The translations under genes and the position numbers were made by a program. A stretch of DNA of 64,000 nt from a virus (taxonomy: Duplodnaviria; Caudoviricetes). The stretch spans positions 1 through 64,000 of IMG/VR virus record IMGVR_UViG_3300031555_002663; one strand, written 5' to 3'. Under the pieces are notes generated by a model. The model saw only the letters and a list, made by a program, of their open reading frames with translations. It was not told the DNA's origin and did no database searches. Below are positions 17,174 through 21,812 of the stretch, in pieces. Each line of letters opens with the position of its first letter. Position 1 is the first letter of the stretch.

Positions 17174-17545
17174 TTACTCCGCAAGGGAGAAGTAAGCCTT
17201 TCTCTTGTCCTCAGTGCGGACAACGATGCCATCGTCCTTCATCTGGCGAAGCAGAGCGGACACTCTCTGGTTGCTGAGTTCAGCACACTCAGGGATTTCC
17301 TTCTGGATTTCGGTCACAGTGTAAAGGCGGTTGGGTTCCATACCCTCAGCGATAGCGGTCTTAATGCCCTCGTTGGCAGTCTGCTGAGCGGTAGGCTTTT
17401 TCTCAGCGGAGTTCTTGCGGTTGAGCAACTCAACCTCGTGGTCGATGAAGGCGATAACCTCATCGTAGTTGTCTGCGGTTGCAGGGTAAGCCGCACGGAT
17501 AATTGCGAAGTAGTCCTTCTTAGTCATCTTCTTAGTATTAGCCAT
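17174..17545 (-). CDS. winged-helix DNA-binding protein, paralog family A copy 1
   Basis: Start refined to MANTKK after AAAGGA; C-terminus LYTVTEI...LSNQRVSALLRQMKDDGIVVRTEDKRKAYF. Confidence 0.7.
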   Translation of the reverse strand: MANTKKMTKKDYFAIIRAAYPATADNYDEVIAFIDHEVELLNRKNSAEKKPTAQQTANEGIKTAIAEGMEPNRLYTVTEIQKEIPECAELSNQRVSALLRQMKDDGIVVRTEDKRKAYFSLAE

Positions 17546-17644
17546 AGTATCAAATCCTTTCTGGTTTTCTAAGGGTTTTCCTTCCCTTACTGTACTTACA
17601 TTATACCATACTTCTAAGGGTTTGTCAAGGGGTTTCGCAAACTT

Positions 17645-17862
17645 TTTTTCTCGACTTACTGCGTCCATTAGACGTTTCACTTCATCATGTCTATCACTCT
17701 TGCCGTTGGCGAAGTGCCACATTGTGGTGTTTCCCATTGGCTCAGATAGTCCGCCCGATAGTTACTGCGTGTAGTCGCCTTACTGCGGAATAAGTGGCTT
17801 ACTTCCTCTACTAACCGAAGTGTGCACCCCTCGGCTTTCTTGGGCTACCGCCCCTTGACTAT
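17645..17862 (-). ncRNA. candidate structured ncRNA 1 (about 215 nt)
   Basis: Own promoter 17867-17895, multiple hairpins, three CGCAGTAA copies, no RBS-backed ORF. Confidence 0.5.
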
Positions 17863-17919
17863 CTTTATTGTACCACAAACCTTTCGGTTTGTCAATACCT
17901 TTTTCAAAACTTTTTGAAA

Positions 17920-18090
17920 AAGTTTTGGCTTGTGTATCCTGCGTATCCACGACATTTTTTCAGCCTGCGTGGTCTGGTTCACATTTGTATACCGCAAACA
18001 GGAACACCTTGCGGTCGGGTCTTGGGGAATCGGTCTTACTGACTCACACGGGTCACACCTTTTTGGCTTTGCCATTCCCTCGCCTTTTGT
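17920..18090 (-). ncRNA. candidate structured ncRNA 2 (about 170 nt)
   Basis: Own promoter 18097-18125; stems GGGAAT/ATTCCC, ACCGCAA/TTGCGGT, CCACG/CGTGG. Confidence 0.45.
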
Positions 18091-18452
18091 ATCTTTATTA
18101 TACCACATCGGGAGCGGATTGTCAAGACCTTTTTCAAACTTTTTTCAAGTTTTTTCATCTTGCCTTTTGGCGGCTAGCCCCTCTCCCTTGGGACAATTAT
18201 AGTATACTACATTGAATGCAGTTTGTCAATAGTTTTGGGAAAAATAATTTCTTTTTTTATTTTCGCAAAACCCCTTGACAAAATGGCTGGCGGCATGGTA
18301 TAATAAAAATTCGGCCCAGCGCGCTCGTCGCCGGGCCGCCAATTATACCACATCAGCTTGCATTTGTCAATAGTTTTTTGAAAAAAAATAAATTTTGTGC
18401 AAAAAAGAGAAAAAATCTCCGATTTCTCGGAGATTTTTGTAAGATTTGCCGA

Positions 18453-19330: not shown

Positions 19331-19749
19331 AGTATCAACTTCCTTTCTTGCGTTGGTCGCAACCCTTATTGTATCTTTATTATACCATACTCGGTTGAGT
19401 TTGTCAAGAGGTTTTTTGAAATTTCCTAAAGTTTTTTTCTTTCGGCTCTTGACTTTCTTTCCCTTTCTGTATCTTTATTATACCATACTCGGTTAGGTTT
19501 GTCAATACCTTTTTGAAAACTTTTTGAAATTTTTTTCTGACCTCTTGGAGTTCCTCTCCCTTGGTACATTATTATTATACCACCACTCCCCCACATTGTC
19601 AACACTTTTGGGAAAAATAAAAAAATAAAAATTTTCGCAAAAACTCTTGACAAAATTTGTGCCGCGTGGTATAATGGTGAATTCGGCGCCCATCGACCGT
19701 GGGCGCCGCGCCAAAGTCAATAGGCAAATTGCACAAAAAGCAAAATCCC

Positions 19750-21574: not shown

Positions 21575-21812
21575 AGTATCATTCTCCTATCTCGTGTTAG
21601 GTCACGACCCATTTTTTTATCTGTAAGAGGCTTCCCTCTTTACATTCTTATTATACCATACTTGGTGAGGTTTGTCAAGGGGTTTTTCAAACTTTTTTAA
21701 AGTTTTTTTCTTGGAGGTTTTGTTTCTCTCTCCCTCTCACTGTAATCATTATACCACAGTGAGAGGGGTTTGTCAAGAGGTTTTTAAAAAGTTTTTTGAA
21801 AAACTTTTCAGA

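Follow-up and report, generated by a model that had tools for sequence, protein, structure and literature searches.

What does an early phage promoter transcribe when the sequence that follows it carries no gene? The question is raised by the minus strand of a 64-kb window (the whole stretch of DNA analysed in this work, 64,000 nt), which is the first part of a viral contig of 73,984 bp with an estimated completeness of 38%. The source is a large gut/rumen phage. Its large terminase is ~50% identical to the counterparts in Enterococcus and Geobacillus phages of ~140 kb, and genes for the portal, the terminase, and very large tail proteins lie in the right half of the window. At 15.4-31.3 kb, 32 perfect promoters of the form TTGACA-N17-TGnTATAAT were found, nearly all of them on the minus strand, and the typical unit of this array consists of a promoter, 35-60 nt, and a small gene with a AGAAAGGA-type ribosome-binding site. 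The gene for a 132-aa protein (18851-18453) and the gene Y1 (17545-17174) are separated by a gene-free stretch of ~900 nt, in which there are five minus-strand promoters (starts at 18370, 18229, 18125, 17895, and 17628) and one plus-strand promoter. This stretch contains the element described here, a non-coding cassette that belongs to the early array (“one promoter per gene”) of a large Firmicutes phage; the neighbouring genes encode a winged-helix protein (Y1) and an HD-domain protein. An earlier note, made from the letters of the sequence, had pointed to a structured RNA behind the promoter at 17895, and its descriptions of that promoter, of the word CGCAGTAA at 17656, 17762, and 17780, and of an A-tract before the next promoter were all accurate. 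The locus is organised as follows.

17867-17895, minus strand: promoter Pa, TTGACA, 17 nt, and a TG-extended TACAAT, which drives the element.
17763-17866, minus strand: conserved 5' domain of 104 nt, taken to begin at the base that follows the -10 box, not at a mapped start.
17664-17762, minus strand: variable middle domain, closed by helix H4, with the conserved junction UGAGCC... / ...GCAAGA.
17623-17663, minus strand: conserved 3' tail with CGCAGUAA copy 3 (17663-17656), GUCGAG, A7, GUUUGCGAAACCCC, and the -35 box of the next promoter.
17600-17628, minus strand: consensus promoter Pb of the downstream gene Y1.
17174-17545, minus strand: Y1, encoding a 123-aa winged-helix protein with weak Pfam matches to winged-helix families.

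No terminator was found between the element and Y1, and the sole terminator-like site on the minus strand here is weak and lies downstream of Y1 (17149-17136). Because no terminator separates them, Y1 would be co-transcribed with the element, and the RNA would be made as a leader of this winged-helix gene unless it is processed. Thus, no terminator defines the discrete RNA that had been proposed. The structural model of Y1 (pLDDT 89.7) has MarR/ArsR-type regulators as its top fold matches, a generic winged helix that gives no pointer to RNA binding. Elsewhere in the array, both paralogues of Y1 are preceded by 2-3 consensus promoters spaced ~98 nt (19379-19602 and 21650-21776, minus strand), and just ~45 nt of transcribed, gene-free sequence lies between these promoters, so that they form “empty” promoter units. 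Within the ~900-nt stretch, positions 18230-18340 hold a terminator-like, GC-rich hairpin on the minus strand (18338-18312) and, on the plus strand, a consensus promoter (18275-18304) that points against all genes; this segment is recognisably conserved, with 74-95% identity, in dozens of related loci.

By comparison of its copies, the element is non-coding and contains no conserved open reading frame. The frame that extends Y1 upstream (MGNTT) is broken by a 1-nt insertion in L103, by a longer insertion in L102, and by stop codons in L026 and L059, in agreement with the non-coding character claimed earlier. Public gene calls (P0001, P0053, P0079) list Y1-type proteins of 178-184 aa, and the corresponding open reading frame of the window (17174-17722) extends through the consensus promoter into the RNA cassette; since the upstream extension is not conserved, these calls are probably over-long. 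The Rfam search that the earlier note had suggested gave no family: the Rfam 15 covariance models had no match in the window at the gathering score and none in 17640-17866 at E up to 10. A search for tRNA and tmRNA found neither.

Related loci were fetched with Y1 as the query, plus one pattern scan of genomes, which yielded two homologous contigs binned with a Clostridia genome. In total, 11 distinct full copies were obtained from related phage contigs (the window copy and 10 other long copies, many of the 11 being close relatives), plus one partial copy. The element was not matched by blastn in the phage GenBank collection, nor were three conserved words of the long and short cassettes matched in exact-pattern scans of IMG/VR, and a covariance model found no further copy in four large related viral records (two of them at least 90% complete) or in the rest of the contig. 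When 399 sampled Clostridia genomes were searched by BLAST with the 238-nt element, the only matches were two phage-like contigs in one metagenome-assembled genome, and neither CRISPR arrays nor any other look-alike were among them.

The conservation of the locus is segmented. Among five copies, identity is 89-99% in the 104-nt 5' domain (77-79% when they are compared with the divergent copy L046) and 95-100% in the 41-nt 3' tail. The middle domain shows 40-53% identity between subgroups, its apical hairpins being swapped in each of the three subgroups, and in L046 it is deleted entirely. The TACAAT of Pa is kept in all homologues, the 17-nt spacer is just 53-65% identical in most pairs, and the coding sequence of Y1 is 64-75% identical in all but one pair. 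These segment-by-segment identities argue for selection and not for recent transfer alone. Moreover, the conserved block spans from the -10 box to the next promoter, and the element therefore matches a transcription unit.

The whole 223 nt folds no better than shuffled sequences (z = -0.63), and the 5' 110 nt gives a z of -2.0. Four helices were modelled:

17842-17853, minus strand: helix H1, GGGC-GGUA-GCCC, whose stem is invariant in the 11 copies.
17814-17835, minus strand: helix H2, the core hairpin, with a covarying 7-bp stem GCCGAGG/CUUCGGU and the loop GGUGCACA at 17828-17821.
17787-17806, minus strand: helix H3, GGAAGUAAG-CCA-CUUAUUCC, bulged, of which a 3-bp core is kept.
17749-17745 with 17695-17691, minus strand: helix H4, CUAUC/GAUAG, which closes the middle domain and covaries.

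All 19 pairs of these helices (204 cells) are paired in every one of the 11 copies, and seven of the 19 are altered on both sides. None of 500 shuffles reached this result, and slid controls were 24-49% paired. Two helices covary, the H2 hairpin and the H4 stem. In H2, five of the seven pairs have changes on both sides (the stem reads UUCACUC/GAGUGGA in L046 and GCUGAAG/CUUCGGU in L102, and one G.U becomes G-C in L059), and the loop GGUGCACA is never altered. Inside the long family this covariation comes largely from one divergent copy, L046, and independent change rests on the short family described below. The loop includes the palindrome GUGCAC, which is placed there by the covariation of the flanking stem; a self-complementary 6-nt sequence is thus displayed in a hairpin loop, as in the HIV-1 dimerisation initiation site (DIS). 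In the genome GTGCAC is neither unusually rare nor common (4 copies, 8.5 expected). Four other 6-bp palindromes are missing from the whole 74-kb contig, namely TACGTA (24.9 expected) and GTCGAC, CCTAGG, and TCCGGA (8.5 expected each), a pattern in the sequence that suggests restriction-site avoidance. H4 occurs as CUGUU/AACAG and CUAUU/AAUAG and in the wobble forms CUGUU/AGCAG and CUAUC/GGUAG, and the junction words inside it, UGAGCC and GCAAGA, are kept. G.U pairs are numerous in the helices; on the plus strand they would turn into C.A mismatches, and it is therefore the minus-strand transcript that is under selection as a structured molecule.

All the hairpins listed in the earlier note, and the inverted repeat AGATAGTC/GACTATCT, are present in the sequence, and its proposal of a promoter-driven, structured RNA holds. 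Their fate among the homologues differs. The hairpin CCGAGG..CTTCGG, which corresponds to H2, is strongly supported by covariation across the 11 homologues. The stem of GGGC-GGTA-GCCC (H1) is invariant and its single change, a G to A in L102, falls in the loop; the pairing itself shows no covariation and is neither supported nor contradicted. Of AGTAAG..CTTATT (H3), the 3-bp core is supported, with one change of U-A to U.G, and the remainder is not; the closing G-C pair is lost in three copies, and the strand CUUA is predicted to be able to pair alternatively with UAAG of CGCAGUAAG copy 1. The hairpins CCAC/GTGG, GCC/GGC, and CGTCT/GGACG are lineage-specific, their place being taken by other hairpins in other copies, and the pair CGACT/AGTCG is not kept in the homologues. 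The long-range pairing of AGATAGTC with GACTATCT is perfect in the window type only and competes with the better-supported H4. We also set aside the long-range helix AGAUAGUC/GACUAUCU, the pairing of the 5' end in the earlier note, since it is likewise perfect in the window type only, is mismatched in most homologues, and shares with H4 the CUAUC strand, which pairs better with GAUAG. A candidate pairing is offered by CCCCUUGAC of the tail, a perfect 9-nt complement of GUCAAGGGG at the 5' end of the RNA, both of which are invariant. A likeness of AGUAGAGGAAG to the sarcin-ricin loop was dropped because the length of the loop disagrees with it and AGUAGAGGAAG is missing from the short cassette.

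The functional core of the cassette is indicated by a natural replacement. The locus L110 is 96.6% identical to the window in both flanks, and positions 17865-17635 are replaced exactly by a short cassette of 114 nt (L110:1297-1410), which is bounded by the -10 box of Pa on one side and by the upstream element of Pb on the other and keeps the GGUGCACA hairpin. Apart from this hairpin, the short cassette (~115 nt) is unrelated to the long element, and it contains no CGCAGUAA. Its outer stem covaries (UUGCUUGG/CCAAGCAA, with the variants UCGCUUG/CAAGCGA and UUGCUC/GAGCAA), and most of its members carry the same GGUGCACA loop on yet other stems, with seven distinct variants of the short cassette in all. 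When long and short cassettes are pooled, eight different stems surround one invariant loop. The four inner pairs, taken over nine representatives, are paired in 94% of cells as compared with 58% in shuffles, none of 500 shuffles reached this value, and 13 cells have changes on both sides. As the short cassette replaces the element and retains the same hairpin, the GGUGCACA hairpin is, on these comparisons, the functional core of the cassette. Carriers of the short cassette in the same slot are L110, L111-L120, L027, L029, L031, L067, L081, and L136:486-595. In L095, L097, L098, and L064 the short scaffold is kept and other inner modules are present instead.

The hairpin was also followed through the Y genes, of which 122 with at least 300 nt of upstream sequence were counted. 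The word GGTGCACA lies upstream of 21 of them, always in the sense orientation, at -138 to -152 nt in the short cassette and at -255 to -283 nt in the long cassette. One further copy, in L136, is located at -352; there, the hairpin cassette occupies one slot further upstream, and the neighbouring RNA cassette lies between it and Y. This permuted order means that the module is not tied to promoter Pb. We propose a new family of GGUGCACA-hairpin early RNA cassettes, which are promoter-bounded, non-coding, read in the sense of the downstream gene, and located upstream of a Y-type winged-helix gene.

Other RNA units occur at the same place. The cassette directly upstream of the element (17930-18090, minus strand, promoter 18125-18097) is a second conserved non-coding RNA candidate, 84-86% identical in L006-L011, L088, and L034, where Y is ~61% identical. 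It shows the compensatory changes CCGCAA/UUGCGG to CCGCAC/GUGCGG and CCACG/CGUGG to CCUCG/CGAGG, and its only open reading frame crosses the next promoter and is not conserved in frame. In a relative with a Y that is 80% identical (L022:109-352), the slot of the element is filled by another non-coding unit of ~240 nt with several strong hairpins (folding z = -1.4), whose 3' part resembles the RNA at 17930-18090. Given the second covarying cassette directly upstream, the locus may be a general RNA-cassette locus.

The earlier note had placed its emphasis on the repeated word, which is CGCAGUAA in the RNA. Besides copy 3 in the tail, the copies are:

17780-17787, minus strand: CGCAGUAA copy 1, inside the 13-nt repeat CGCAGUAAGKCGA, kept in 10 of the 11 copies of the element (GCGUAGUAA in L046).
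17762-17769, minus strand: CGCAGUAA copy 2, not conserved (CUCAGUAAC in L121 and CUUAGUA in the L026 group), with AGUA alone invariant.

At the DNA level, the second copy reads CTCAGTAAC or CTTAGTA in other copies of the element. The first and third copies stood the comparison, and both lie within the 13-nt repeat that is kept in nearly all long-family copies. CGCAGTAA occurs four times in the window against an expectation of 1.03, and three of these lie inside 132 nt with spacings of 18 and 106 nt. The sequence CGCA-GUAA-GNCG could, on inference only, fold as a small GNRA-loop hairpin.

What, then, does the cassette do? That the stretch is a real, conserved, structured RNA cassette matching no Rfam family is well supported by sequence comparison. 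We hypothesize that it is a modular early RNA whose hairpin offers a specific docking site for a protein or for another copy of the RNA, a reading whose probability we put a little short of even. The consensus host-type promoter Pa would transcribe a cassette with a near-invariant 5' domain, a variable middle, and a conserved tail, in which the invariant GGUGCACA loop would act as the sequence-specific docking site. Its partner would most likely be a host or phage protein that is bound or titrated by the abundant early RNA. Alternatively, the partner may be a second copy of the loop, since the self-complementary GUGCAC could form a kissing dimer; the use of this palindrome for kissing in HIV-1 makes self-association a concrete alternative to protein docking. 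The two are indistinguishable because the loop never varies. The repeated (C)GCAGUAAG words would be secondary, as further contact sites or small GUAA-loop hairpins. Transcription would continue across the next promoter and Y1, with the RNA first made as the 5' part of this longer transcript; cleavage in the A-rich tail may then release it. A self-contained, loop-recognised RNA module is favoured by the promoter-bounded block, by the invariant loop on freely changing stems, by the long, short, and absent alleles, and by the permuted order in L136. A search for antisense targets within the phage gave just matches of 11-12 nt, about the chance number.

This docking module has to be weighed against a leader function. 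The RNA might act in cis as the 5' part of the Pa-initiated Y1 transcript, on stability, processing, translation, or a nut/put-like loading of polymerase. Since no terminator intervenes and a Y gene always follows, such a leader role stays in the discussion: every copy found, long or short, is sense-oriented upstream of a Y gene, which would fit a Y-linked regulatory site as well, and the position directly after an early promoter is the one expected, by analogy, of nut and put sites. However, Y1 is served by a consensus promoter and a ribosome-binding site of its own, both downstream of the element, and the later genes each have their own promoters, so that read-through is not obviously needed. 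In addition, the Pa and Pb transcripts show no consistent difference in the predicted accessibility of the Y1 ribosome-binding site, another RNA cassette with a promoter separates the hairpin cassette from Y in L136, and ~100 of the 122 checked Y genes have no such hairpin. We regard the leader function as unlikely on balance. The same linkage to a Y gene could reflect an element that acts as DNA, either as operators of Y1 (the GTGCAC inverted repeat or the CGCAGTAA repeats) or as a single-stranded DNA hairpin for priming or origin function; the modelled MarR/ArsR-like DNA-binding fold of Y1 and the location of repeat copy 3 ~30 bp upstream of the -35 box of Pb are consistent with it. An operator would keep its half-site sequence, whereas the arms of this inverted repeat change entirely and stay complementary with wobble pairs, which makes a DNA operator unlikely. 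The imperfections are all G.T on the transcribed sense strand, i.e., G.U in RNA, and the conserved block coincides with the transcription unit. By sequence alone a single-stranded DNA hairpin stays conceivable, and an action at the DNA level is given a slim chance.

The interpretation offered in the earlier note was a protein sponge, in which the three CGCAGUAA words would titrate an RNA-binding protein or nuclease in the manner of type III antitoxins or CRISPR-repeat mimics. The three exact copies within 132 nt, the conservation of copies 1 and 3, and a roughly tenfold local enrichment of AGTAAG and CGCAG in the 540 nt that hold the element RNA, the neighbouring RNA, and the Y1 leader speak for it, although these enrichment figures are generous because the words were chosen after the sequence had been viewed. 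In this form the sponge is not supported, since one of the three copies is not conserved and none occurs in the short cassette, which nevertheless keeps the GGUGCACA hairpin. Tandem Repeats Finder detected no tandem array inside the element (it finds just the A/T repeats of promoter upstream elements), so that the ToxI-like repeats of ~34-36 nt are missing, and nothing resembling a CRISPR-repeat mimic was found in the 399 sampled Clostridia genomes or anything similar in the four large relatives. We consider the sponge through these words improbable. Thus, the observation made earlier was confirmed in part and its interpretation supported in part, the core being the second hairpin and not the CGCAGUAA words. 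A coding function, as an extended Y1 or as a small peptide, is hardly plausible. The 5' domain contains no ATG, and its one GTG, in the H2 loop, starts a frame of 15 codons that is open in all copies and in which several substitutions are synonymous; the long forms of Y in public gene calls also point in this direction. However, this GTG is enclosed in a hairpin loop and directly abutted by GAGGG, the peptide sequence of the frame is not conserved, with non-conservative replacements where the stem covaries (TSV to RVE), conservation reaches 40 nt upstream and past the stop codon, and the extended frame crosses a consensus promoter. Finally, the element could be filler with no function, left between tandem promoters by the decay of a cassette or as the scar of a recombination. 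Gene-less tandem promoters ~98 nt apart do exist upstream of the two Y1 paralogues, and cassettes are clearly shuffled at promoter sequences. On the other hand, decay is difficult to reconcile with a 5' domain conserved at 89-99% beside a diverged promoter spacer, with compensatory changes in two helices, and with the same hairpin in two different scaffolds, and we regard filler as very improbable.

The docking-module reading can be extended to the biology of the phage. Lytic phages carry their functions for host takeover and counter-defence in the early regions, and almost all of those known are exerted by proteins. The unit described here is non-coding and yet behaves like one of these accessory genes. 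It has a strong promoter of its own, is more tightly conserved than the sequences around it, occurs in near-identical phages as a long, a short, or an absent allele, and shows its fixed-loop hairpin in two scaffolds. It is conceivable, though we hold it only tentatively and at well under an even chance, that these are interchangeable RNA cassettes, swapped at promoters like protein genes, whose shared GGUGCACA hairpin neutralises a host protein (a defence nuclease, for example, or a global regulator that binds RNA) or multimerises through GUGCAC kissing. It would mean that the phage carries a new, purely RNA-based module for host takeover or counter-defence. The hairpin is a small, well-defined RNA bait of ~22 nt for a partner search, and the long, short, and empty variants found in nature are ready-made comparisons.

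Among known systems, the nut sites of phage lambda and the put sites of HK022 are short structured RNAs located just after an early phage promoter that act on their own transcript. The element resembles them in what follows its early promoter, a hairpin whose identity is conserved and, next to it, a single-stranded word that is conserved too. It differs in that no sequence or structure match and no N-like protein were identified, in that the downstream genes have their own promoters, and in that the L136 cassette is separated from the gene by another cassette. The pRNA of phi29 is an abundant RNA of a Firmicutes phage, made from a strong early promoter, with a functional 5' domain, a dispensable 3' part, and multimers formed by loop-loop contacts. 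The element had no Rfam match at E up to 10 and hence no match to the pRNA model, and the source phage, which packages with a terminase, has no need for a pRNA.

Pseudo-ToxI and Racr decoys are, like the element, small non-coding RNAs carried by phages; they titrate a host defence protein (PMC10651486 for Racr). The element differs from pseudo-ToxI in having no tandem 34-36-nt array. Unlike the Racr RNA anti-CRISPRs, the element has no repeat match in the 399 sampled Clostridia genomes, and no Cas context or cognate toxin is known for it. Large comparative screens report candidate structured RNAs in phage and microbiome sequence (PMC10690425, PMC8040213), and these candidates rest on the same type of evidence as ours, an intergenic covarying motif in viral contigs. 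The element is distinct from the families of Rfam 15 (nothing at E = 10), which is the reach of this comparison. The last comparison is with the HIV-1 DIS, a site in a retroviral genome and not in a phage early transcript, for which GUGCAC is among the palindromes used for kissing dimerisation (PMC5874298). The DIS loops pair with a second copy, which for the phage hairpin is an analogy only, and the invariant phage loop would fit protein recognition equally. The likeness lies in the hairpin itself, which shows the 6-nt GC-rich palindrome GUGCAC, flanked by purines, in a loop of 8-9 nt (PMC5874298).
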